In this document: piece after piece, positions 1 to 11,067 of the stretch
How positions within the stretch are numbered: the stretch's first letter is position 1
Layout: every line of letters begins with the position of its first letter
Source of the DNA: Patescibacteria group bacterium
GTDB lineage: Bacteria; Patescibacteriota; Minisyncoccia; UBA6257; HR35
Direction: 5' to 3'
NCBI GenBank assembly: GCA_023480925.1
Contig: JAMCWY010000017.1
Location: 1-11,067, forward strand
Length of the DNA stretch: 11,067 bases
Notes under the pieces: model-generated
What the model was told of the DNA's origin: nothing
Databases searched by the model: none
What the model saw: the letters and a program-made list of their open reading frames with translations, nothing else
Position numbers and translations under genes: made by a program

Positions 1-42
1 GCGGCGGAAAGTAGTATAGCACCCAAACTGTACACAAAGTAA
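1..42 (+). CDS. possible 3' end of a CDS that begins upstream of the window (product unknown)
   Basis: Frame 1 is open from the window edge (AAESSIAPKLYTK) to TAA at 40-42 and is followed immediately by a strong intrinsic terminator. The other two + frames hit stops by nt 19. Only 13 codons are visible, so support is weak. Confidence 0.25.
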   Translation, partial: AAESSIAPKLYTK

Positions 43-73
43 AGGGATGACTGTCAAATGTCATCCCTTTTTT
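41..73 (+). terminator. Rho-independent terminator, possibly bidirectional
   Basis: Perfect inverted repeat aaagggatgac (41-51) / gtcatcccttt (60-70) with an 8-nt loop, followed by a T6 run (68-73) on the + strand. On the - strand the same stem is preceded by A6 and followed only by TTTACTTT, so it is weaker in that direction. Confidence 0.7.
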
Positions 74-74
74 A

Positions 75-361
75 CACTTCCCGTTTTTCAGTAGCAACAT
101 CGTCGACTAATTTCAACCGCCTCTCAGTCATCTCCACATAATCCGACCTTAACTCAATGCCGATATCGCGAGGCAATGGCAGACTTCCGGCAATCGACAC
201 GCCGATCTCAAGCTTCCTCCGAGAAGTTTATCATGAGTTCTAATCAACTCTGACACCATACCAGTGTCTGTCGAGAGATGGATACTGGTTTTCTTTTTCT
301 TTAACCTCTTAACACTTCGCCCCTGCAAAAATCCGCCACGCTCTCCTGCTGCGCCCTCCAT
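75..361 (-). ncRNA. candidate structured non-coding RNA, family unassigned
   Basis: There is no credible ORF. The only one (149-361, -) encodes a G/A/R-rich peptide unlike every other protein here. By hand count, G+C is about 49% over 121-360 (57% over 301-360) against about 24% in the adjacent spacer 361-480. The segment is C-rich on + (G-rich on -), which favours a - strand transcript. Local hairpins include gacac/gtgtc at 252-268, with an alternative accagt/actggt pairing at 260-289. The segment is bounded by an AT-rich promoter-like spacer and the hairpin at 41-73. No RNase P, tmRNA or SRP signature was seen by eye. Confidence 0.3.
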
Positions 362-547
362 TTTTTGTTTGCGAATATGAAATTTATTTTTTACGAAAGC
401 TCTATGATGTCGATATTGTAAAAGATCAAAAAAATACGATAAGGTGTTAATATAAAATTTCGAGAACCAAAATCACATATACATTGCAGGCTATCGCTTT
501 GTAAGAAACTATCTCACTGGGGTAACGAAAATGTGTAAAGGGCGTAT

Positions 548-570
548 TGTCACGCGCGAAACGCGTGGCA
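548..570. other. stable 9-bp hairpin inside a GC-rich segment just 3' of tRNA-Leu
   Basis: ttgtcacgcg (548-556) pairs with cgcgtggca (562-570); the core is cacgcg/cgcgtg with a 5-nt loop. It is embedded in about 63% G+C sequence (541-600, hand count). No T-run follows on either strand, so it is not a classical terminator. Confidence 0.5.
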
Positions 571-604
571 CCTCCTGGCTTCCAAGGGCCGCTAAGTTCC
601 ATTT

Positions 605-691
605 TGGTGCCGGAGAGAGGATTTGAACCTCCACGAGCTTGCGCTCACCAGGTCCTAAACCTGGCGCGTCTGCCAATTCCGCCACCCCGGC
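605..691 (-). tRNA. tRNA-Leu (anticodon UAG), class II, CCA encoded
   Basis: The reverse complement reads GCCGGGG TG GCG GAATTGGCAGA CGC G CCAGG TTTAGGA CCTGG TGAGCGCAAGCTCGT GGAGG TTCAAAT CCTCT CTCCGGC A CCA. It has a 7-bp acceptor stem (one G-T), a 3-bp D stem, anticodon loop TTTAGGA (anticodon TAG) and a T arm with a TTCAAAT loop. The 15-nt variable arm has a GAGC/GCTC stem. Total length is 87 nt. Confidence 0.95.
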
Positions 692-759
692 GTCTAAATA
701 AATTTTATCAAACTTGATCATATAATTATATTCGATAAAGAACGAAATTTTGTTAGTCG

Positions 760-787
760 TTTATAAATTTACCAATGGTTTAGTCAA
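760..787 (-). promoter_or_regulatory. sigma70-like promoter upstream of tRNA-Leu
   Basis: On the - strand: TTGACT (787-782), a 16-nt spacer, then TATAAA (765-760). This predicts a start about 60 nt upstream of the mature tRNA 5' end. Confidence 0.45.
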
Positions 788-826
788 CTAACAAAAAAGA
801 ATTTATCAAAAAATTAAAAACAAAAA

Positions 827-899
827 GCCCGCTTAGCTCAGTTGGCAGAGTATCTGGCTTACATCCAGAAGGTCGTTGGTTCGAGTCCAACAGCGGGCA
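827..899 (+). tRNA. tRNA-Val (anticodon UAC), CCA not encoded
   Basis: GCCCGCT TA GCTC AGTTGGCA GAGT A TCTGG CTTACAT CCAGA AGGTC GTTGG TTCGAGT CCAAC AGCGGGC A. The acceptor stem is perfect (7 bp), the anticodon loop is CTTACAT (anticodon TAC) and the T loop is the canonical TTCGAGT. Total length is 73 nt. Confidence 0.95.
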
Positions 900-1130
900 C
901 GAAATAGAATTCGCCAAAGTTTTAGAAGTGAACAAAAAAATATTCACCAGACCCGATCGGAATTTTTTTCTTGCGTTTTATTTTTCCGCCAATAAATTCT
1001 TGCGAAGCATAACACCGCTTTGCGGCGGCCGGCGGCTGATTCGTCAAGACCAAAGATTTTTGTTAAAATAGGTTCAAACGTGATTATATAAATACACTCC
1101 CCGGTTCGTTCCGACCGCAAAACAATCAGT

Positions 1131-2432
1131 ATGAAATTTTATAGCGTGCGACAAAAAAATTCGCTGGTCAAACTTCAAGAAGCCGTCATGAACGGCATTG
1201 CCCCGGACGGCGGGTTGTACATGCCTTCTCAAATACCTCGTTTGCCGGACAACTTTTTTAAAAAGGCGGGATCAATGTCATTCCAGGATATCGCTTTTGA
1301 AATAAGCAAAAATTTTTTTGTGCCCGACCTGCCCCAAAATGTTTTGAAAAAAATTGTTGAGGAATCGTTTAATTTTGATCTTCCCTTGATTGAATTGGAT
1401 AAACAATTATACGTATTTGAATTATTCCATGGCCCGACTTGCGCCTTTAAGGACTTCGCCGCTCGATTTATGGCGCGGTTGCTTAGCTTCTTCGCGGAAA
1501 AATCGCGGCAAGAAATCACTATACTTGTCGCCACGTCGGGCGACACTGGCAGCGCCGTCGCGAGCGGATTTTTAAACGTAGACAACATCAAAGTAATTAT
1601 CTTGTATCCAAGCGGGAAAGTAAGTCCGCTCCAAGAAAAACAACTAACGGGGATGAGCGGCAATGTTATTGCCATAGAAGTTCAAGGCAGTTTTGACGAT
1701 TGTCAGAAATTGGCAAAACAAACTTTTCTCGACGAAGAATTAAGAAAAAAGATGACATTGACATCGGCAAATTCGATTAACATCGCGCGCCTATTGCCTC
1801 AATCTTTTTACTACGTCTATCTTTGCGCGCGGCTTAAACTGAAAAATATTCCGCTCGTCGTTTCCGTGCCAAGCGGAAATTTTGGCAATTTAACGGCCGG
1901 CGTTATCGCGAAAAGAATGGGTGCGCCCATATCCAAATTTATCGCTTCAACCAACACTAATAGCGTCGTCCCCGAGTATTTAGAAACAGGAAATTTTAAA
2001 CCGAGAACTTCAATCTCAACCATCTCAAACGCCATGGATGTTGGCAATCCAAGCAATTTTTCAAGAATGCTCGAATTATATGATGACGATGTTGAAAAAA
2101 TGCGAGCTGACATATGCGGCGCGATTTTTTCCGATAGCCAAACAAGAGACGCGATCGCGAACGTTTTCAACCGATACCAGTACATTATGGATCCCCATGG
2201 CGCGGTTGCTTATCTTGGGCTGATTGAATTTATAAAAACATTCCAAGAATACACAGGCGTATTTTTGGAAACAGCTCATCCCGCTAAGTTTTTCGAAGAA
2301 GTTGAAAAAGTTATAAAAACGCCAGTGCCCATGCCGGACAGGTTAAAAAATTATCTTGAACGAGAAAAACAGGCTGTCTTTTTAAACAATGACTTCGACG
2401 AACTTAAAAATTTTCTTTTAAGGCAATTTTAA
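1131..2432 (+). CDS. thrC: threonine synthase (PLP-dependent, E. coli ThrC type)
   Basis: 433-aa ORF. The N-terminus has GIAPDGGLYMP. The PLP-lysine motif is HGPTCAFKDFAARFM, with the Lys codon at 1449-1451 (residue 107, as I recall for E. coli ThrC). ATSGDTGSAV and SANSINIARLLPQ are also present. Length and motif order match ThrC. Confidence 0.92.
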   Translation: MKFYSVRQKNSLVKLQEAVMNGIAPDGGLYMPSQIPRLPDNFFKKAGSMSFQDIAFEISKNFFVPDLPQNVLKKIVEESFNFDLPLIELDKQLYVFELFHGPTCAFKDFAARFMARLLSFFAEKSRQEITILVATSGDTGSAVASGFLNVDNIKVIILYPSGKVSPLQEKQLTGMSGNVIAIEVQGSFDDCQKLAKQTFLDEELRKKMTLTSANSINIARLLPQSFYYVYLCARLKLKNIPLVVSVPSGNFGNLTAGVIAKRMGAPISKFIASTNTNSVVPEYLETGNFKPRTSISTISNAMDVGNPSNFSRMLELYDDDVEKMRADICGAIFSDSQTRDAIANVFNRYQYIMDPHGAVAYLGLIEFIKTFQEYTGVFLETAHPAKFFEEVEKVIKTPVPMPDRLKNYLEREKQAVFLNNDFDELKNFLLRQF

Positions 2433-2584
2433 TATTCCAACCCGCACAAAAAATATTGCCACAAAAATAAAATCGAGTTTAGGCCAAGGCCCGGCAAAAA
2501 TTTTAAGACTTTTCCAAAGTTAAATTCGCGAACAAAAAATTTTTTAAGTTCAACTCAAATTAACAACTTCTCAATCATTAATTA

Positions 2585-3907
2585 TTACAAACCATAATTC
2601 GCCTTATCGGCGTTATAAAGACTTCCAATTTCGGAACTGGACAAGGCCCGATCGTAAATCTTAATATTACTGAGCATACCCTTGAGTGTGCCGGCCGGAT
2701 TGGAAAGTTCATGACCGCTCCCGCCAGCAATATTAATTTGGTTAAAACCAGTTGTCATCTGCGTTGCCGTTGCATAAGTACTCGCCAAAAGACCGTTTAA
2801 ATATATATTCATCACGCTGCCGTCATAAGTAGCGGCGACAAAAACCCATTGGTTAGACGGTATAGAAGCGTTTAGACAAACATCGGGGCCTCTCCTAATA
2901 TACCAATCCCCGCACCAGTTGCTTCCATCCGTAAAAGTAGGGGTGAATCCACCGCTTCCTTGATAACCCATAATAAATCCTTCATTTCCATAACTTATAT
3001 TGCCAGTCTCATCCAACCAAAAAGCGTAGGTGATTTTATTACCCACTGTCGTCGAAGCGAAAATACTGTTGGGAGCGCTAAGGATGTAACCCCAAGTGTT
3101 GAAATTCAAAACATACTGGCCTGAATTAAGCTGAGTCCACTGAGGATAACAACTCGCTCCGCAAGTGGACGAACCATTATACATCTGGCCATTATCACCA
3201 TAGATCGTATAATCGTTTACGACCGTCCCCACGCCTTCATCCAGCGGCCACCAGGCGACAAGAGTCGAATCGTTGGAAACTTTAATTTGCGAACGATTCA
3301 AAACCGCGACTGGTATTAACTTTAGATTACTTCCGACTTCGTAAGAAAGATTTGAGAGACCACCGTCAGTACCGGCGATACTCGTGTTACCTTGATTGCT
3401 GGAAGATTCCATATAAGCGGATACCTCCCATTGCGGATCGGTCACATAGCTGTAATAGTAGGGCGGCTGATTGGTTGGATCAATAGGAAAGGCGCTTAAT
3501 GCGATCATCATATCATTGGCAAAATTAACGGGAATCCAACCGGTACCGTCAGTCTTACCTAATGTTGAGGTCGCGACGCAGTTGTAAGACCAGCCCAAAG
3601 GCAAGATAGGCAGTTGACTTGTCCAGCTTGAGCAAGTCGCCGACGAATCGGGCAAAGAAATATAAACAGTGTTAGCATTGCCCATTGAGGCGGCGGGATA
3701 ATCGGCGGCGAAAACATTAAGAGCTTCGTTGATATTTTTTAAATCTTGAACTCTGCGCACGTCTCTGGACTTGGCGAAAATCAGAGCCGGTTTCATGTAA
3801 AGTATGATGATAACGGCCAAGATCGCGAAGATCGCGAAGACAATAAGAATCTCGATCAAGGTGAAACTTTTATTTCTAAACTTAAGAGAGTTTTTTCGGC
3901 GATTCAA
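2585..3907 (-). CDS. type IV pilin-like (prepilin-type N-terminal methylation domain) protein with a C-terminal LamG/concanavalin-A-like lectin domain
   Basis: The N-terminus MNRRKNSLKFRNKS|FTLIEILIVFAIFAILAVIII is a basic leader, then the FTLIE motif with Glu5, then a hydrophobic helix (class III signal peptide). The C-terminal roughly 215 aa starts with LVAWWPLDEGVGTVVNDYT and ends with LSNIKIYDRALSSSEIGSLYN, the typical ends of LamG (Laminin_G_3) jelly-roll domains. The start is TTG at 3907-3905, and there is no in-frame ATG or GTG upstream before the stop at 3949-3947. Confidence 0.85.
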   Translation of the reverse strand: MNRRKNSLKFRNKSFTLIEILIVFAIFAILAVIIILYMKPALIFAKSRDVRRVQDLKNINEALNVFAADYPAASMGNANTVYISLPDSSATCSSWTSQLPILPLGWSYNCVATSTLGKTDGTGWIPVNFANDMMIALSAFPIDPTNQPPYYYSYVTDPQWEVSAYMESSSNQGNTSIAGTDGGLSNLSYEVGSNLKLIPVAVLNRSQIKVSNDSTLVAWWPLDEGVGTVVNDYTIYGDNGQMYNGSSTCGASCYPQWTQLNSGQYVLNFNTWGYILSAPNSIFASTTVGNKITYAFWLDETGNISYGNEGFIMGYQGSGGFTPTFTDGSNWCGDWYIRRGPDVCLNASIPSNQWVFVAATYDGSVMNIYLNGLLASTYATATQMTTGFNQINIAGGSGHELSNPAGTLKGMLSNIKIYDRALSSSEIGSLYNADKANYGL

Positions 3908-3911
3908 ACTA

Positions 3912-3934
3912 CTCTCTCTCTCTCTCTCTCTCTC
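3912..3934. repeat. perfect dinucleotide microsatellite, (CT)11.5 on + and (GA)11.5 on -
   Basis: 23 uninterrupted nt, ctctctctctctctctctctctc, read directly from the sequence. It lies 4 nt upstream of the TTG start of the pilin-like gene, within its 5' UTR. Confidence 0.98.
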
Positions 3935-3971
3935 GAATTGACATATTTAATACCCATCTTAATTTGAGTTG

Positions 3972-4000
3972 TTGAAGTTTGTGAATTGTTTGATTATAAG
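3972..4000 (+). promoter_or_regulatory. candidate divergent sigma70 promoter for the + strand gene string starting at 4087
   Basis: TTGAAG (3972-3977), 17 nt, then TATAAG (3995-4000). Its -10 overlaps the -10 of the opposing pilin promoter within the shared ATTATAAG segment. Confidence 0.35.
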
Positions 4001-4021
4001 TTGGTTTTAATTTAAAGTCAA
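3993..4021 (-). promoter_or_regulatory. consensus sigma70 promoter driving the pilin-like gene
   Basis: On the - strand: TTGACT (4021-4016), exactly 17 nt of spacer, then TATAAT (3998-3993). This predicts a transcription start near 3986 and an approximately 80-nt 5' UTR containing the GA repeat. Confidence 0.65.
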
Positions 4022-4086
4022 GTCGGACCAAAGACAAAAAAAGACCGCCCCTGAAAATTTTCGCGCCAATCGGTTAAACTTAAAAT

Positions 4087-5379
4087 ATGAGATTTTTCGC
4101 CGACCTTCATTTCCACTCAAAATATTCGCGCGCCTGTTCAAAAGACTTGGACTTGGAACATTTGGTTTACTGGTCGAAACTGAAAGGTTTGAACTTAATC
4201 GCGACGGCTGATTTCACCCATCCCTTTTGGTTTCACGAACTCAGGACCAAGCTCGAAGAAGACGGCTCGGGTTTTTTACGGCTGAAAAAAGAATATCAAA
4301 TTGACAGTCAGATTGAAAAAGAAATATTTTTTGTCCCTTCGGTTGAAATCAGCTCAATTTTCAGCCGGGCCGGTCAAGTCAAACGGATGCACTACCTTGT
4401 TATCTTACCCGACCTTGATTCGGTTGAAAAGTTTAATCAGAAACTTTCATTTCGCGGCAATCTTCGTTCCGACGGCCGACCGATTCTTGGTCTCGAACCG
4501 AAAGCTGTTTTAGAATTAGGCCTGAGCGTCAACCCAAAAATGATTTTTATCCCCGCCCATATCTGGACGCCCTGGTTTTCGCTCTTCGGTTCGATGTCGG
4601 GCTTTAACTCGATCAACGAAGCCTTTGGCGACCTGACTCAGTTTATCCCGGCGATTGAAACTGGCCTTTCCTCCGATCCGGAAATGAACTGGCGGCTGAG
4701 CCAACTCGATCCCTTCCAAATCGTTTCATCTTCCGATGCTCATTCGCCTCAACCTCATCGAATCGGCCGCGAAGCGACTGTTTTCGAGCTAGAAAAACCA
4801 AATTACGCTTCGCTTTTCCAGGCCTTAAAAAATCCCAACGAAAAAAATCGGATCGAGCTGACAATCGAATTTTATCCCGAGGAAGGCAAATACCACTATG
4901 ACGGTCACCGTTCCTGTCAAATCAGCTTCTCGCCCGAAGAGTCGAAACGAAACAATTTTCTCTGCCCAATTTGCGCCAAAAAATTAACCATCGGCGTTTT
5001 ATCGCGCGTGGAAGAACTAGCCGATCGACCAAGCGGCTACATTGGACTAAATCGGCCGCCAGCCAAACATCTTATTCCTTTAAGCGAGATTATCGCCGAA
5101 GCGCTTAAGAGCGGTCCGACGACAAAAAAAGTTCTTGATCTTTACTTGACAATCGTCAATCACTTCGAGAACGAATTTAACTTATTCTTGGGCGACGCCG
5201 ACATCAATGAAATTAAAAATAAAATTCCCGAACCGGTCTGGTTGGGTTTGAACAAGTTCAAAAAAGGCGAGTTGAAAATCAAACCTGGCTACGACGGCGT
5301 TTACGGCGAGATAAAAATTCTCGATCTCGACGAAGCCGAATCAAAAAAAACCGCCGAGTGGCCCAAATCGTTATTTTAA
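4087..5379 (+). CDS. PHP-domain nuclease of the endonuclease Q (EndoQ, COG1379) family
   Basis: 430 aa. The PHP metal-binding motifs are ADLHFHSKYSRA, IPAHIWTPWFS and SSSDAHSPQPHRIGRE. The Zn-ribbon insert is GKYHYDGHRSC...CPICAKKLTIGVLSRVEELADR. The C-terminus has KPGYDGVYGEIKI. Motif order and spacing match my recollection of Pyrococcus/Bacillus EndoQ. Confidence 0.78.
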   Translation: MRFFADLHFHSKYSRACSKDLDLEHLVYWSKLKGLNLIATADFTHPFWFHELRTKLEEDGSGFLRLKKEYQIDSQIEKEIFFVPSVEISSIFSRAGQVKRMHYLVILPDLDSVEKFNQKLSFRGNLRSDGRPILGLEPKAVLELGLSVNPKMIFIPAHIWTPWFSLFGSMSGFNSINEAFGDLTQFIPAIETGLSSDPEMNWRLSQLDPFQIVSSSDAHSPQPHRIGREATVFELEKPNYASLFQALKNPNEKNRIELTIEFYPEEGKYHYDGHRSCQISFSPEESKRNNFLCPICAKKLTIGVLSRVEELADRPSGYIGLNRPPAKHLIPLSEIIAEALKSGPTTKKVLDLYLTIVNHFENEFNLFLGDADINEIKNKIPEPVWLGLNKFKKGELKIKPGYDGVYGEIKILDLDEAESKKTAEWPKSLF

Positions 5380-5415
5380 ACAAAGCGTTATAATTATTGA
5401 TTATTAAAACAAAAA

Positions 5416-5763
5416 ATGATTTTTCAGGTTCTTGGTCAAAGTCTTTTGAATGACATCGTTGATTTTCTTCAATTTTACTTCATCACTAATCTTAAAAAAA
5501 TCAGCCGGAGCTTTTTCGACCAACTTGATCGAGCCGAACGGCAGTTTGGCTTTAAGGCCAATTTAAAAAATTTTTGGCGGCCGCTTTTTAGCGACTACTC
5601 CTTGCCCGGTTATGTTTTCGCCGTTCCTTTTCGTTTGATTTTAATCGGCTTGGGCTTGGTCGTGATTTTGTTTTGGCTGATTCTTTACAGCCTTATTTTG
5701 CTTGTTTATCTTTTTCTGCCAGTCGTCATTAGTATTTATCTTTACTATGGCCGACTTAGTTAA
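5416..5763 (+). CDS. small membrane protein, function unknown
   Basis: 115-codon ORF with an ATG start, long for AT-rich DNA. It has a soluble N-terminal half and two strongly hydrophobic C-terminal segments (FRLILIGLGLVVILFWLILY and LILLVYLFLPVVISIYLYY). Its end overlaps the next gene's ATG (5747) by 17 nt. I recognise no family. Confidence 0.5.
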   Translation: MIFQVLGQSLLNDIVDFLQFYFITNLKKISRSFFDQLDRAERQFGFKANLKNFWRPLFSDYSLPGYVFAVPFRLILIGLGLVVILFWLILYSLILLVYLFLPVVISIYLYYGRLS

Positions 5764-8257
5764 TCTTGAAGCGAAAATTTTTCAACTCGGCTATTGGGAA
5801 AAACTTCTTTATAAAAATTTAATTCTGAGCGCGCGCGTCCTCTTGATTATTCTTGGCTTTAGTTTGATTTTTATCAACATCCCTATTCTCCGTCTGACCG
5901 GATTTTGGTTAATCGTCATCTGGCTCTTTCATTTTATTCAAACCAACTACTTGACCAAAAAAGATCTTCGCTTTAAACAAGACGCCGATTTTTTGGAGTT
6001 CGCCGAGGAAAAAACAATTTTTTTAATTCTCGACAGCCTAAAAGAAGCCGAACTTTTAAAAATCCAAAATATTCAGATCGTTCTCTTGGCCAAACTTTTA
6101 AATCAAAAAGACGTGATTAAAATCCTGGCTCGGCTTAGTCTCGAACCAAAACCAATCCAAATTGAAACCGAGACTTACTTTAAAGAAATTGGGAAAGGCC
6201 CGGCTTTGGATTTAAAACTTCAATTAAAAAAATTTCTTTTAAAAAACATCGAACCGATCTTGATCTGGTCGATCAAAATCGCCCGCGACTTAAACTACCC
6301 CTCGATATCGCCGGCGATTCTTTTTGTCGCCCTGCGCGAAAAAGGCGATTTGAGCATAAATGAAATATTCGAAAAATTCAACATTGACCAAGACTTTCTT
6401 AAATCGGCTCTGGCCCTTAATATTTTTAAAGAAAAAATCGGCGGCCAGCGGCGCCAAAGCCTGGCTAAGTTTCATTTAGGCGGCGCGCGCCAGCGATGGC
6501 ATAATCGTTCTTGGACATCAAGACCAACACCGATTTTGGATCAGTTCGGCACCGACTTAACCAACCTCGCCCGCGCCAACCAAGTCGGCTTTATTATTGG
6601 ACACGGCAAAGAACTTAACGAAATCATGGTCAATCTCAATCAGTTTGACAAATTTAATCTCCTTTTAATCGGCCGCGCCGGTTCGGGCCGAACCAGTTTA
6701 GTTTGGCGCTTGGCCTGGTTAATCAGTCGAGACTTGATCCCGGAAAAATATTTTGATTTCCGCGTGATCGAACTTAATTTGAATGAAATTTTTGCCGCCG
6801 ACCCGCGAAATTTTCATCATCTTTTAATTTCGATTTTGAACGAAACCGCGGCCAGTCAAAATACCATTCTTTTTTTGCCCGAGATTGATCAAATTCTTTT
6901 AGCTAATATTTCGCCTTCGCCGCTATCACTACTCCAACCTTTCCTTGAATCGAACTCAAATGTTTCTTTTATCGCCACGACCACGATTGAAGCGGCAATC
7001 CGGCTGAAACATCTTTACCAAATTGAAAATTATTTTAACTTAATTGAAATTGATGAGCTTCAACCGAACGAGGCGATTAATCTTCTTTCGCTTGAATCAC
7101 TTTTACTTGAAAAAAAAGAAGGAATTTTGATTACGCCCCAAGCGATCGCCCGATCGGTCAGTTTAGCCGAACGATTTATCTCAACCAAACCCCTGCCCGC
7201 CTCAGCCCGAAGCGTCATTAACGAGGCTTTTAGTTTAGCTAAGGCCCATCGCTTAAAAATTATCACGGAAGAAATTATTGGCGACATCATTAGCCAATCA
7301 ACCAAAATTCCGATAACCGATCCAGGCCAAGCGGAAAAACACCTGCTCGAAAACCTCGAGGCCGTCATTCATCAACGTTTAATCGATCAAGACTTCGCCG
7401 TTAAAGAAGTAAGCCGAGTCTTAAAAACATACCGAAGCGGCTTGATTAAAAGCAAAGGACCAATCGGCAGCTTTCTTTTTGTCGGACCAACCGGCGTCGG
7501 CAAAACCGAGTTGGCGAAGATACTGGCTCGAACATACTTCGGCGGCGAAACGGAAATGATTCGAATCGACATGGTCCAATTTCAAAACTCGACCGATATC
7601 GAAAACTTAATCGGTTCGGCCGACGGCCAAACGCTCGGCCGTCTGACCGAAACGGTTCGAGCTAAACCCTACAGCCTAATTCTTTTGGATGAATTCGAGA
7701 AAGCCGGATTGGAAATTATTAATCTCTTTCTGCCAATCTTCGACGACGGTTTAATTAAAGACGGCCTCGGACGCGAAATAAAATTTGACAACACCATTAT
7801 TATCGCCACCTCGAACGCCCATTCGAATTTAATCAAAACCGAATTTGAAAACGGCAAAACGATTGAAGCGATCGCCGACGAAGTCAAGACCAAGCTAAAC
7901 GATTATTTCCCAATCGAACTCTTAAATCGATTCGACGGCGTTATTTTTTTTAAACCGCTTGGCCCAAACGAACTTCGCCAAATCGCCGAACTACTAATCG
8001 GCGATTTGAGTCGTGACCTCTTATTTAAATTCGGCGCCAACTTAAAATTAACCGAGCCGGCCTTGGCTAAAATCGTTGAATTGGGTTATAATCCAACTTA
8101 CGGCGCCCGGCCACTCGCTCGAGTGATTGAAAAAGAAATTAAAAGCCTAATCGCCGAAACAATTTTAAAAACAAGCCTGAACCGCGGCAGTCAGATTAAT
8201 ATTGACTACAACGATCAAGACAATAAATTCGTTTTTAAGACAACTCCGCCGTTATGA
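5747..8257 (+). CDS. membrane-anchored Clp/Hsp100-family double-AAA+ ATPase (ClpB/ClpC-like) with a degenerate first nucleotide-binding domain
   Basis: Start taken at ATG 5747 (MADLVN...); the ORF track uses TTG 5702. Two predicted TM helices (VLLIILGFSLIFINIPIL and FWLIVIWLFHFI) are followed by Clp_N-like repeats. The D1 module begins TPILDQFGTDLTNLA, with Walker A GRAGSGRTS (6671-6697) and Walker B ILFLPEID. The D2 module is canonical: GPTGVGKT (7484-7507), LILLDEFEKA, IIIATSN, ELLNRFDGVIFFKPL and GARPLARVIEKEI. Confidence 0.9.
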   Translation: MADLVNLEAKIFQLGYWEKLLYKNLILSARVLLIILGFSLIFINIPILRLTGFWLIVIWLFHFIQTNYLTKKDLRFKQDADFLEFAEEKTIFLILDSLKEAELLKIQNIQIVLLAKLLNQKDVIKILARLSLEPKPIQIETETYFKEIGKGPALDLKLQLKKFLLKNIEPILIWSIKIARDLNYPSISPAILFVALREKGDLSINEIFEKFNIDQDFLKSALALNIFKEKIGGQRRQSLAKFHLGGARQRWHNRSWTSRPTPILDQFGTDLTNLARANQVGFIIGHGKELNEIMVNLNQFDKFNLLLIGRAGSGRTSLVWRLAWLISRDLIPEKYFDFRVIELNLNEIFAADPRNFHHLLISILNETAASQNTILFLPEIDQILLANISPSPLSLLQPFLESNSNVSFIATTTIEAAIRLKHLYQIENYFNLIEIDELQPNEAINLLSLESLLLEKKEGILITPQAIARSVSLAERFISTKPLPASARSVINEAFSLAKAHRLKIITEEIIGDIISQSTKIPITDPGQAEKHLLENLEAVIHQRLIDQDFAVKEVSRVLKTYRSGLIKSKGPIGSFLFVGPTGVGKTELAKILARTYFGGETEMIRIDMVQFQNSTDIENLIGSADGQTLGRLTETVRAKPYSLILLDEFEKAGLEIINLFLPIFDDGLIKDGLGREIKFDNTIIIATSNAHSNLIKTEFENGKTIEAIADEVKTKLNDYFPIELLNRFDGVIFFKPLGPNELRQIAELLIGDLSRDLLFKFGANLKLTEPALAKIVELGYNPTYGARPLARVIEKEIKSLIAETILKTSLNRGSQINIDYNDQDNKFVFKTTPPL

Positions 8258-9204
8258 CGAAACCAATAAAGATTTCATTAATCGCCGGCTTGATTGTTTT
8301 AGTTGCCACAGTTGGATTTTTTATTTTTTATTTTCGTCAAAAAATTTCTTTGATCAACAACTTCAACAACTTTTTCCCCAACTCAAACCAAGCCATTCTT
8401 CTTTTAGGCCAACCTGGCCTAGAACAATACCAAACCGATTACAACACCGACGCGATTATTCTTGTTTATATCGACACCAAAACCGAGAGTGCCAATTTTA
8501 TCCGCATTCCTCGCGATCTAATCGTTGAAATTAACAAGCGTCAATACAAAATTAATTCTCTCTACGCTCTTGGCTTAAAAAAGGAGCTGCTCGAGAAAAT
8601 TAGCGACATCAGCGGCTTTAAAGTTAGTCATTATGTTGTTTTTGACCTAAGTTTGGTTAAAGAAATTGTCGACGCCATCGGCGGCATTGATGTCGATCTA
8701 AAAGAACCAGCGACCGATTGGGCTTCGGGCTTCACCTTGGCCCCGGGCGTTCATCATCTAGACGGAAAGCTGGCTGAGTTTGTTATCCGCGACCGCCTCT
8801 ACCCAACCGGCGATTTTTATCGCATCCACAATCAGTTTTTAGTTTTTCAAGCAATCAAAGAAAAAATTGAAGAGCTGCCCAAAACAAAACTTATTGGGCT
8901 AATCGGAATTATTCAAGCCAGCCGGCGCCATTATGAAACAAATCTCGAAGAGTATCAGATCCTTGACTTTTTGACAAAAATTGAGAAAATTAAATCTGAT
9001 CGTTTCCACGATATTATTATCGACACAAGCCACAATCTTCTTCAGGCCGGATCGTTCAGAATTTATTTTGGCCAAATTTATTACGACAACATTTACGGCT
9101 TAATCCCACCCTTCGGCATTAATCACTACGCCGAAATCAGAAATTTCATCAACGATCAAATTAACCAATCCAAACAAAACAGCAATGAAGCAAGTTCGAC
9201 CTAA
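8254..9204 (+). CDS. LytR-CpsA-Psr (LCP) family cell-envelope glycopolymer transferase
   Basis: An N-terminal TM anchor (ISLIAGLIVLVATVGFFIFYF) is followed by the LCP core motifs DAIILVYIDTKTESANFIRIPRDL, KINSLYALG and VSHYVVFDLSLVKEIVDAIGGIDVDL. Its ATG overlaps the TGA of the upstream gene (ATGA at 8254-8257). Confidence 0.85.
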   Translation: MTKPIKISLIAGLIVLVATVGFFIFYFRQKISLINNFNNFFPNSNQAILLLGQPGLEQYQTDYNTDAIILVYIDTKTESANFIRIPRDLIVEINKRQYKINSLYALGLKKELLEKISDISGFKVSHYVVFDLSLVKEIVDAIGGIDVDLKEPATDWASGFTLAPGVHHLDGKLAEFVIRDRLYPTGDFYRIHNQFLVFQAIKEKIEELPKTKLIGLIGIIQASRRHYETNLEEYQILDFLTKIEKIKSDRFHDIIIDTSHNLLQAGSFRIYFGQIYYDNIYGLIPPFGINHYAEIRNFINDQINQSKQNSNEASST

Positions 9205-9325
9205 GAGCCTAAAAAAATTTATTCGCCAACTAAAAAGTCAAATGCGGCGCGATTTAACCGCCGAAACGGAAATTAAAATTAAGATTGAAAAAATTTTAAA
9301 ATCTTATCATGGCGAAAAAGTTTAA
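9185..9325 (+). CDS. possible small basic protein (46 aa), unannotated in the ORF track
   Basis: ATG 9185 to TAA 9323-9325 encodes MKQVRPKSLKKFIRQLKSQMRRDLTAETEIKIKIEKILKSYHGEKV. It spans the whole 104-nt gap between the LCP and Mur ligase genes and overlaps both ends. An open 46-codon frame in AT-rich spacer is mildly unexpected. I recognise no homology. Confidence 0.25.
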   Translation: MKQVRPKSLKKFIRQLKSQMRRDLTAETEIKIKIEKILKSYHGEKV

Positions 9326-10685
9326 AAAATTGATTCCGAAAAAATTAGTCAATTTTTATCATTATCTTTGGGCCTTGGTCGGCGCCTTAATTTACAAATT
9401 TCCGAGCCGGAATTTAATCGTTATCGGCGTCACTGGGACAAAAGGCAAAACTTCCGTCTCTTATCTGACTTACGCTTTGCTTCAAAGCGCCGGGATCAAA
9501 ACCGCCCTTTTCTCTTCACAATATTTTTGCATCAACGATGACCTCAAAGAAAATACTGTTCGATTAACCACGCCCGGCCACGGCTTCTTTCAAAAATTTC
9601 TGGCCGAAGCAACTAAAGCCGGCTGCGAAGTCGCCATCCTTGAAATCACGTCGGAAGGTCTGGTCCAGTCGCGCCATCGCTTTATTGATTTTGATATTGT
9701 CGCTTTCATCAATATTCATCCGGAACACATCGAACACCACGGCGGTTATCTTAACTACCGCGAAGCTAAGAGTCTTTTATTTAGAAACTTACTCAAGGGT
9801 AAAAACAAACTTTTTCGGAGCAAGTTGATCAAAAAAACAATCGTCGTCAATCTTGACGAAAAAGAAGCTGATTATTTTTTAAGCTTCCCCGCCCAACAAA
9901 AAATAACTTACTCGATCGAAAACACCTACTCTTATCCGAATCATCTCCAACCCCAAAAATATACTCTTGCCCCGACCGGGACGAGATTTTATTGGGAAAA
10001 TCAAATTTTCAATTTTAAAATGCCCGGCCGCCAATATTTAAGCAATGCCTTCGCCAGCCTTAGTATTATTCACGGCCTCGATCTTAACGTTAAATCTTTT
10101 AACCAGGCCTTGGCCGACTTCAATGGCCTGAGTGGAAGATTTGAGGTTATAAGCGCCGGCGGGATTAAAGTAATTATTGATTACGCCCACACGCCCGGTT
10201 CAATCGAAGCTCTTTACCAAAATATCTGGCAAATATTTAAACCGAAACGTCTTCTTTGCCTTGTTAGTTCTGCCGGCGGCCACCGCGACAAGTGGAAACG
10301 GCCGGTTATCGGCGAAATCGCCTGCCGCTATTGCAATGAAACTATCATCACCGACGAAGATCCGGTTGACGAAGACCCGATGGCGATCATGAGATCGATT
10401 GAAACTGGGCTAAAACGTTATTTGGCCGAATATGAGCTTCAAAAACCGCACAAAATTATTCCCGATCGAACCGAGGCGATTAAAACCTTAGTCGACCAAG
10501 CCCAAAAGGACGACGTTGTTGTCTTAATTGGCAAGGGCGCTGAAAAATCGATCGAGACGGCCGATGGCCCAATCCCTTGGGACGAAGAAGAGGCGGTTAG
10601 AAAAGCTTTAAACTCTAAACAAGGACAACTTCGCCGGTCAAACCGGAAAATTTACTCCAAAATTTCAACCAAAGCGTCGGAATGA
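9309..10685 (+). CDS. murE: Mur ligase family enzyme, MurE-like (UDP-MurNAc-L-Ala-D-Glu:diamino-acid ligase) lacking the canonical N-terminal domain
   Basis: The P-loop is VIGVTGTKGKTS (9426-9455, residue 40 onward). EITSEGLVQSRHRF...NIHPEHIEHHGGYLNYREAK, DYAHTPGSIEAL and SSAGGHRDKWKRP parallel E. coli MurE EVSSHGL..., DYAHTPDALE and GGDRDKGKRP. TDEDP (10350-10364) sits at the position of the MurE DNPR motif. Confidence 0.75.
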   Translation: MAKKFKKLIPKKLVNFYHYLWALVGALIYKFPSRNLIVIGVTGTKGKTSVSYLTYALLQSAGIKTALFSSQYFCINDDLKENTVRLTTPGHGFFQKFLAEATKAGCEVAILEITSEGLVQSRHRFIDFDIVAFINIHPEHIEHHGGYLNYREAKSLLFRNLLKGKNKLFRSKLIKKTIVVNLDEKEADYFLSFPAQQKITYSIENTYSYPNHLQPQKYTLAPTGTRFYWENQIFNFKMPGRQYLSNAFASLSIIHGLDLNVKSFNQALADFNGLSGRFEVISAGGIKVIIDYAHTPGSIEALYQNIWQIFKPKRLLCLVSSAGGHRDKWKRPVIGEIACRYCNETIITDEDPVDEDPMAIMRSIETGLKRYLAEYELQKPHKIIPDRTEAIKTLVDQAQKDDVVVLIGKGAEKSIETADGPIPWDEEEAVRKALNSKQGQLRRSNRKIYSKISTKASE

Positions 10686-11067
10686 ATGCCGAAATCGAGC
10701 GCTTGCTGTTTCGACGACATCCAGATATCGAATCTGGTCGAGTAGCGGTTACTCATCCGATCCTCAACCACAAAAATCTTGTCGCCATAAATACCGGGGA
10801 AGCTGACCTTGGTGCCAAAAGGCAAAAAGTTGTTCGCGACGATTCCATCCGCAACATGCAAACCCGAAGCGGTGATGAATGGTGTTGGTCCAGTTTCGTC
10901 CGGGCTCGAAGAGTAAGCGGTCACGTTCGCTCGAACTATGGTTGTGGCTGAAATTGATTTTAAGAACGGGCCCTCTGGATTTTGGCTTTGGTAAACGACC
11001 TTAGCCTCGGTTGGAGAATAAACTTGGCCAACCGAGACCGAAACGAACAAAATTAGAGCTAACAGCA
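10652..11067 (-). CDS. 3D-domain (MltA/RlpA-like double-psi beta-barrel) cell-wall-associated protein, N-terminus beyond the window edge
   Basis: VTAYSSSPDETGPTPFITASGLHVADGIVANNFLPFGTKVSFPGIYGDKIFVVEDRMSNRYSTRFDIWMSS matches the 3D-domain pattern (tAY..p.eT...P.iTAsG......G.vA...lPfGTkv........y.V.DrM......iDi.m). The frame stays open upstream of the listed TTG (11050) to the window edge and reads LLALILFVSVSV, which looks like a signal or TM segment. Confidence 0.8.
   Translation of the reverse strand, partial: LLALILFVSVSVGQVYSPTEAKVVYQSQNPEGPFLKSISATTIVRANVTAYSSSPDETGPTPFITASGLHVADGIVANNFLPFGTKVSFPGIYGDKIFVVEDRMSNRYSTRFDIWMSSKQQALDFGIHSDALVEILE

Follow-up and report, generated by a model that had tools for sequence, protein, structure and literature searches.

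A length-variable GA dinucleotide tract as a candidate translational phase-variation switch on lectin-type prepilin genes of a Patescibacteria lineage

At the 5′ end of a lectin-type pilin gene in the genome of an uncultivated, ultrasmall Patescibacteria bacterium, we identified a 23-nt GA tract that is likely to be a hypermutable simple sequence repeat (SSR) acting as a translational phase-variation switch on the prepilin open reading frame (ORF). The gene is encoded on contig JAMCWY010000017.1 (positions 1 to 11,067; assembly GCA_023480925.1; GTDB lineage Bacteria; Patescibacteriota; Minisyncoccia; UBA6257; HR35), and this whole stretch of 11,067 nt is referred to below as the window. Window positions are used throughout, and the pilin gene and its upstream cassette are read on the minus strand. 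A preliminary description of the window had proposed a slipped-strand contingency switch on this lectin-pilin and had suggested inspecting orthologous loci. Such loci do carry the repeat at a different length (15 vs 23 nt in the ortholog), and together with a second difference in a paralog, gene B (25 vs 21 nt), they support the proposal.

The switch region consists of the following elements, listed in the direction of transcription (UTR, untranslated region; SD, Shine-Dalgarno; L, tract length in nt):

4016..4021, minus strand: −35 hexamer TTGACT of the pilin promoter (promoter scan)
3993..3998, minus strand: −10 hexamer TATAAT (promoter scan), invariant in 4/4 aligned loci
3958..3986, minus strand: A-rich, SD-less 5′ UTR of ~29 nt, with the transcription start inferred ~7 nt past the −10 hexamer
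3955..3957, minus strand: ATG1, putative alternative start, in the pilin frame if L mod 3 = 0
3942..3944, minus strand: ATG2, 13 nt 3′ of ATG1 and in another frame, in the pilin frame if L mod 3 = 1
3912..3934, minus strand: GA tract, (GA)11.5, 23 nt (repeat search, shuffles), coding for (Arg-Glu)n from either ATG
3904..3911, minus strand: out-of-frame stop trap, in which TAG 3911-3909 closes the ATG2 frame and TGA 3906-3904 the ATG1 frame
3905..3907, minus strand: TTG, the annotated start in the window allele, overlapping TGA 3906-3904
3866..3904, minus strand: basic leader of the prepilin, NRRKNSLKFRNKS, up to the cleavage site that precedes FTLIE, with FTLIEILIVFAI next
2585..3865, minus strand: mature pilin and stop codon, with an N-terminal hydrophobic helix and a C-terminal LamG/ConA-like lectin domain (~2627-3052)

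All that had been described for this region from the letters was confirmed. The promoter scan placed TTGACT-17-TATAAT at 4021..3993, with 11/12 matches to the sigma-70 consensus and a 17-nt spacer. In the alignment, TTGACT is kept in the orthologs and in paralog C and is replaced by TTTGTT in paralog B, the 5′ UTR motif AAACTT.AA.AACT.AAATTAA.ATG is common to the paralogs, and TCAATTC is conserved between ATG2 and the GA tract. Tandem Repeats Finder (TRF) reported a period-2 array of 11.5 copies at 3912-3934 with 100% matches and no indels. Together with an SSR census, it confirmed that this tract is the sole dinucleotide array, and the sole dinucleotide SSR of at least five units, in the window; a 15-nt GA run arose in 0/200 dinucleotide-preserving shuffles.

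The reading frames around the tract were also as first reported. The ORF from ATG 3957 (MGIKYVNSRERERERVV) terminates at TGA 3906-3904, the ORF from ATG 3944 (MSIRERERERE) terminates at TAG 3911-3909, and the pilin frame upstream of the TTG is free of stops as far as TAA 3949-3947 and contains neither ATG nor GTG in that interval. Past the 3′ end of the tract, TAGT leads into TTG 3907-3905, giving a spacing of 4 nt between tract and TTG. When the window's tract was given lengths of 11-33 nt in silico, the frames followed a strict three-phase cycle with no new stops at the junctions: L mod 3 = 0 joins ATG1 to the pilin, L mod 3 = 1 joins ATG2, and L mod 3 = 2 joins neither. The earlier prediction that loss of one unit would bring ATG1 into frame and gain of one unit ATG2, with no stop created, thus holds in the simulation, and both fusions also exist as real alleles. 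The window allele (L = 23) is the predicted OFF phase.

These alleles were found in related contigs, where tract lengths and frame states were read directly; for one partial protein (P0129) the length is implied by the protein sequence. Gene A denotes the window's pilin gene and its orthologs, genes B and C are paralogs with the cassette, and gene D is a paralog without it:

Window, gene A: 23 nt, neither ATG in frame
L005 (NCBI GCA_021788915.1), gene A, syntenic ortholog: 15 nt, ATG1 in frame
L006 (ENA ERZ27233565), gene A, syntenic ortholog: 15 nt, ATG1 in frame
L007 (NCBI GCA_021788915.1), gene B, LamG paralog: 25 nt, ATG2 in frame
L010 (ENA ERZ27233565), gene B: 21 nt, ATG1 in frame
L008 (NCBI GCA_021788915.1), gene C: 27 nt, out of frame
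L011 (ENA ERZ27233565), gene C: 21 nt, with (AGT)2 expanded to (AGT)5, out of frame
P0129 (partial protein MCL4358359.1), gene C: 23 nt implied, with an indeterminable ATG state as the contig stops inside the cassette
L012 and L013 (Logan SRR10278331 / NCBI GCA_023381135.1), gene D (P0003): no tract, a plain ATG and an A-rich leader

Orthology of gene A in L005 is supported by neighbours matching those in the window (thrC, MJ0043_C-domain, ClpB-like, LytR and Mur ligase genes), and gene B lies ~29 kb from gene A on the same GCA_021788915.1 contig. In L005 and L006, the encoded proteins P0123 and P0125 (454 aa, in the 90% cluster of the window pilin) start with MCIKYVNSRERESSLNRRK..., which is the ATG1 ORF joined to the pilin. 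For gene B, P0002 from L007 (44% identical to the window pilin) starts with MSIRERERERESKN..., corresponding to the window's ATG2 ORF joined to the pilin, and P0128 from L010 starts with MNFNYVNSRERERESKN... and has ATG1 in frame. The offset of 13 nt between the two ATGs is kept in the window, L005, L006, L007 and L010. The cassette, from the −10 hexamer through the tract and including both ATGs and the TATGTCAATTC motif, is conserved between paralogs of only 44% protein identity. It is common to at least three paralogous pilin genes with differing heads, two of them LamG and one FGE-sulfatase-like; the gene C ortholog P0004 has an FGE-sulfatase-type C-terminal domain (PF03781). In L008, the ATG1 frame is shut by a TAA that arises from a 1-nt insertion, and it is likewise closed in L011.

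At homologous positions, the tract measures 15, 21, 23, 25 or 27 nt, and it is where near-identical contigs differ in length. Over 17,377 aligned nt, L007 and L010 show 0 mismatches and a single gap, of 4 nt, within the tract (25 vs 21), and this change swaps the in-frame start between ATG2 (P0002) and ATG1 (P0128). Three substitutions separate L008 and L011 over 6.8 kb, with 3/3 gap positions in the tract region; L005 and L006 differ by 11 substitutions over 9.8 kb and have no gaps. Taken together, these three pairs (~34 kb) show 14 substitutions, 0 indels outside the tracts and changes in 2/3 tracts, a confinement of indels that is as expected from a locally raised slippage rate. At greater distance, the window and L005 are 96.7% identical across 10.5 kb; of the two gaps in this alignment, one covers 8 nt of the tract (23 vs 15). 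Across ~67 kb of the lineage, dinucleotide SSRs of at least five units were found only as pilin tracts. This pattern suggests that the tract is hypermutable; it falls short of proof for switching within a population. The locus thus combines the sequence marks of an SSR translational switch, namely a perfect non-triplet repeat in the 5′ coding part, length polymorphism with conserved flanks and stops in the wrong frames. It also has ATGs in two of the three frames 5′ of the repeat, each joined in-frame to the pilin in real alleles, which is the multi-start arrangement of licA type.

Which codon starts the pilin bears directly on this reading. Among 36 genes of L005, L007 and L008, 33 start with ATG and 3 with TTG or GTG, an SD-like motif precedes only 2, and the sequence in front of the starts is rich in A and T. 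ATG1, behind ...CAAATTAAG, and ATG2, behind ...ATTAAAT, match this A/T-rich, SD-less pattern, and the TTG, behind GAGAGAGTAGT, does not. The TTG had been called a weak start without SD motif: the motif is indeed absent, but its absence is uninformative in a lineage where SD-like motifs occur in just 2/36 genes. Such a near-lack of SD motifs bears on start-codon calling in these metagenome-assembled genomes (MAGs). Gene B has no ATG, GTG or TTG from the tract to the cleavage site, so that pilin can be made there only by read-through from an upstream ATG. We conclude that ATG1 and ATG2 are predicted alternative true starts, not starts of upstream ORFs (uORFs), and that the tract would code for (Arg-Glu)n within the prepilin leader. 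In ON alleles, the tract is therefore read through as leader codons, and its earlier placement inside the 5′ UTR has to be revised. The annotation from TTG (MCL5257962.1) is probably a phase-dependent fallback of the gene caller, and the TTG itself would be at most a weak or leaky start.

The same evidence weighs on the best-surviving alternative, a neutral 5′ UTR microsatellite in which the pilin is always made from the TTG or another post-tract start, the ATGs are irrelevant and tract length has no phenotype. It draws on the window's longest ORF, which begins at the TTG in agreement with the NCBI annotation, on the retention of the TTG in genes A and C, and on the short leaders of the family (4-14 aa). 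We nevertheless regard it as improbable: gene B lacks a post-tract start codon, TTG and GTG starts are rare (3/36), and ATG1, ATG2 and their 13-nt offset are kept across paralogs at 44% protein identity. Both wrong frames are, moreover, closed right behind the tract, like in designed switches, and the TTG lies inside a stem in the minimum free energy (MFE) fold. The leader RNA as a whole is no more structured than expected (MFE −18.4 kcal/mol vs a shuffle mean of −18.5, z = 0.03), and an Rfam scan of the window found two tRNAs elsewhere and no family at the leader. These results give no sign of a role for RNA structure.

The length differences could, alternatively, stem from short-read assembly or sequencing errors in a low-complexity stretch shared by paralogs, or the window gene could be a frameshifted or mis-assembled pseudogene. 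Dinucleotide runs are subject to PCR stutter, L011 is chimeric across the cassette, and the presence of the cassette in at least three paralogs breaks Logan contigs of the same strain at window ~3735, ~3963 and ~4009. (We dropped a reading of these breaks as repeat heterogeneity, because a cassette of more than 31 nt shared by paralogs breaks a k = 31 graph.) Against this, the tracts (15-27 nt) are far below both the read length and k = 141, so the assembled length must exist in reads; the differences amount to 2-4 units, whereas stutter changes the length by ±1; and the flanks are otherwise free of indels. The 15-nt tract of gene A recurs in independent assemblies and the 25-nt allele of gene B in two NCBI contigs. 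A pure assembly artefact behind the length differences is unlikely, and we give this explanation as a whole a very low probability.

Two features of L011 (ENA ERZ27233565, k141_405891) are recorded separately. In positions 1-240, the left 115 nt are upstream sequence of the gene A type (the MJ0043_C-neighbour side) and are joined through the cassette, which carries one A-like single-nucleotide variant, to the body of paralog C; this join reflects either gene conversion between the switch cassettes of the paralogs or a chimeric assembly. Directly 3′ of the GA tract, a second SSR, (AGT)5 at 224-238, replaces the (AGT)2 seen elsewhere (L008 7947-7952), a frame-neutral serine expansion that coincides with a GA tract 6 nt shorter. 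A further pilin-like gene, at L007 16293-17228 and identical in L010, has the leader MVRPVKTKAKRKKKKLNRPAG|FTLIE and an A9 run (16329-16337) in its leader-coding part; the run is of equal length in both assemblies and is a possible second kind of slippage tract.

The preliminary description had treated the two ATG ORFs as uORFs and suggested termination-reinitiation at the TTGA overlap, a scheme in which the TTG drives the pilin and tract length tunes the length of the uORF. In the window, L008 and L011, the ATG1 or ATG2 frame does stop at or near the TTG, and TGA and TTG overlap in the L mod 3 = 2 phase. Yet the supposed uORF is continuous with the pilin in 4/7 sequenced loci (L005, L006, L007 and L010), or in 5/8 alleles if that inferred from P0129 is included, gene B has no TTG, and we see neither an SD motif nor any other reinitiation signal. 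Reinitiation control accordingly finds no comparative support and appears very improbable. Low-level TTG initiation possibly occurs in genes A and C, where it may be coupled to ATG1-frame termination at the overlapping TGA; gene B lends this no support. Least credible of all is an action of the polypurine/polypyrimidine mirror repeat as DNA or RNA rather than through the frame (H-DNA, a transcription block or an SD-like ribosome landing pad): (GA)n/(CT)n tracts are capable of triplex formation and the TTG follows the purine run at a distance of 4 nt, but the leader RNA folds like its shuffles (z = 0.03), Rfam has no match there, the two-ATG frame logic and the trailing stops would stay unexplained, and an SD-like role of the purine tract was ruled out in a lineage that does not use SD motifs (2/36 genes).

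Several observations do weigh against a frame-based switch at the GA tract. The cassette was seen in only 3-4 genomes of one narrow clade, with none found in GTDB representatives or JGI contigs. The exact 20-mer TATGTCAATTCGAGAGAGAG had 0 matches in genome contigs and metagenome contigs, a degenerate 5′ UTR pattern had 0 in metagenome contigs, and a related-locus search with P0123 in genome contigs returned just an unrelated LamG fragment from a Chthoniobacteraceae MAG. It is possible that the NCBI and ENA assemblies draw on common reads, and the 21/25 difference would then reflect a mixed population or a choice made by the assembler. Gene C is out of frame in the sequenced assemblies and has its ATG1 closed, so that some copies may be decaying instead of switching. 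Finally, the presence of two ATGs leaves a single OFF phase against two ON phases, and the bias towards OFF is weaker than at classical loci.

The product has the features of a type IV prepilin with a lectin head. From the TTG, the window ORF encodes 440 aa and is 100% identical to NCBI MCL5257962.1, which is annotated from the same TTG. The protein matches N_methyl (PF07963) at aa 11-34 (E = 7e-7, 29 bits, cut-off 21.2), the type IV prepilin motif, and Laminin_G_3 (PF13385, ConA-like lectin; E = 8e-18). Its K-S|FTLIE cleavage site is the family norm, as are leaders of 4-14 aa, and a hydrophobic helix follows the N-methylation motif (KS|FTLIEILIVFAIFAILAV). Judging by this motif, the repeat-encoded residues would sit in the leader removed by prepilin peptidase. 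At E ≤ 1e-10, 181 homologs were retrieved, mainly Patescibacteria prepilins; an exact-protein look-up of the window pilin (with L or M as first residue) and of P0004 gave no record, and neither pilD nor pilB was found in the window or the fetched loci.

Within the part of the gene coding for the hydrophobic helix, window 3819-3840 contains a tandemly duplicated 9-nt unit (plus strand, AAGATCGCG x 2.4) that gives VFAIFAILA, with VFAILAILA in the ortholog. A partial second N-methyl stub ('SFTL...') is present in the distant homologs P0006, P0031, P0032, P0065, P0066, P0090, P0102, P0103 and P0118, and such stubs lie 20-45 residues upstream of the real FTLIE motif in many Patescibacteria LamG-pilins; they may have arisen where the 5′ ends of pilin genes recombined or exchanged cassettes. 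Elsewhere in the window, two divergent tRNA genes (608-691 on the minus strand and 827-899 on the plus strand; Rfam RF00005, 54.7 and 71.8 bits) lie upstream of thrC. The pilin cassette and the divergent neighbour of the pilin, a 430-aa gene at 4087-5379 on the plus strand, have a 179-nt intergenic region in common. This neighbour has syntenic counterparts in L005 and L006; it had no Pfam-A match in our scan, and a precomputed match to PF27218 (MJ0043_C) is on record. Genes adjacent to the pilin in this strain occur at 100% identity in the sequencing runs SRR10252151, SRR10244963 and SRR10278331.

The switch mechanism that we infer covers slippage with its reversibility and rate, consequences for expression, cleavage of the leader and a part in attachment. 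In it, transcription would proceed from the consensus promoter and SD-less initiation would take place at one of the two ATGs, 13 nt apart in differing frames, just 5′ of the tract. Slipped-strand mispairing would add or remove 2-nt units and so move the pilin body through three phases, and at L mod 3 = 2 both ATG frames would run into TAG or TGA straight after the tract. With (Arg-Glu)n confined to the cleaved leader, both ON phases and all in-frame lengths would yield the same mature lectin-pilin: as the repeat residues fall in the part that is removed, the mature protein should not change with tract length. Each copy of the cassette could be switched on its own, and a varied set of adhesive tips would then be displayed.

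By analogy, the logic of such a translational SSR switch is already known from licA, oipA and opa, and these fit better than the hif-type analogy offered at first. In Haemophilus influenzae licA (lic1), a CAAT repeat lies 3′ of initiation codons in two of three frames, and repeat number sets the in-frame start (PMC2212159). With an SSR just after multiple start codons occupying two of three frames, this is the closest system in design, differing in that licA has a tetranucleotide in a pathogen's lipopolysaccharide-modification kinase; here a dinucleotide lies in the prepilin leader of an environmental Patescibacterium, and cleavage is predicted to remove the repeat residues. In repeat type and position, the nearest systems are Helicobacter pylori oipA, sabA and hopZ, in which a CT dinucleotide tract in the signal-peptide region of adhesins causes ON/OFF switching by slipped-strand frameshift (PMC10564699). 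The shared element is a CT/GA tract in the 5′ part coding for a cleaved peptide. Those genes have one start codon, a Sec signal peptide, CT on the coding strand and outer-membrane beta-barrel products, whereas the pilin locus combines a prepilin leader with a pair of staggered ATGs and has GA on the coding strand.

In Neisseria, opa (CTCTT) and pilC (poly-G) carry repeats in the leader-coding part of adhesins or pilus-tip proteins, and their paralogs switch independently to give combinatorial display; the repeat units differ from GA, and pilC encodes an adhesin associated with the pilus rather than a pilin that has an N-methyl leader. The opa and pilC loci are not known to have a dual-ATG design. 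The Haemophilus hif locus shares a dinucleotide repeat (TA) governing pilus expression, but there the repeat separates −35 from −10 and works at the level of transcription. A promoter-spacer switch of the hif/nadA type was ruled out here, since the 5′ edge of the GA tract is 58 nt downstream of the −10 hexamer (3998-3993), outside the promoter.

For bacteria of the Candidate Phyla Radiation (CPR), the preliminary description knew of no such switch, and the full-text literature likewise yielded no paper describing one: a search of 8 million full texts for phase variation, slipped-strand mispairing or frameshifting SSRs in Patescibacteria, CPR or Saccharibacteria returned nothing relevant but a Gracilibacterium (CPR) gene with hypervariable PTD repeats, predicted to encode a surface or attachment protein (PMC6851277). 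That gene differs in that its repeats are 9 nt long, stay in frame and vary synonymously, and neither a frameshift nor ON/OFF logic is involved. The Saccharibacteria type IV pilus (T4P) proteins PilX1 and PilX2 are lectin-like minor pilins with proposed host-glycan binding (PMC11623550); they resemble the pilins described here in being patescibacterial and in having a lectin-like head at the C-terminus. Neither a repeat nor phase variation has been reported for them, and the present genes belong to another, environmental lineage and another family (LamG). What is new is the host lineage, the location in a type IV prepilin leader and the use of one cassette on paralogs with differing heads.

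Members of Patescibacteria/CPR, which have reduced genomes, are believed to spend their lives attached to other microbes. T4P with lectin-like tips are leading candidates for host recognition, and in Saccharibacteria lectin-like minor pilins are already implicated in binding the host, which makes a biological purpose of the switch plausible (PMC11623550). The predicted ON/OFF state of the pilin can be read straight from metagenomic reads at a concrete locus; as a caution, the phase captured by the consensus determines how start codons and pseudogenes are called for such genes in MAGs. On the sequences compared here, we lean slightly towards a wider reading in which a portable switch cassette on paralogous pilins, slipping independently, would provide a three-state (ATG1, ATG2 or off) combinatorial display of lectin-pili, as episymbiont bet-hedging over attachment to hosts or substrates, and would represent the first CPR contingency loci. 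Contingency loci built on simple repeats typify host-adapted pathogens, among them Haemophilus, Neisseria, Helicobacter and Campylobacter, and a switch on the lectin-pilins of an environmental CPR lineage suggests that the same bet-hedging logic may operate in episymbionts.

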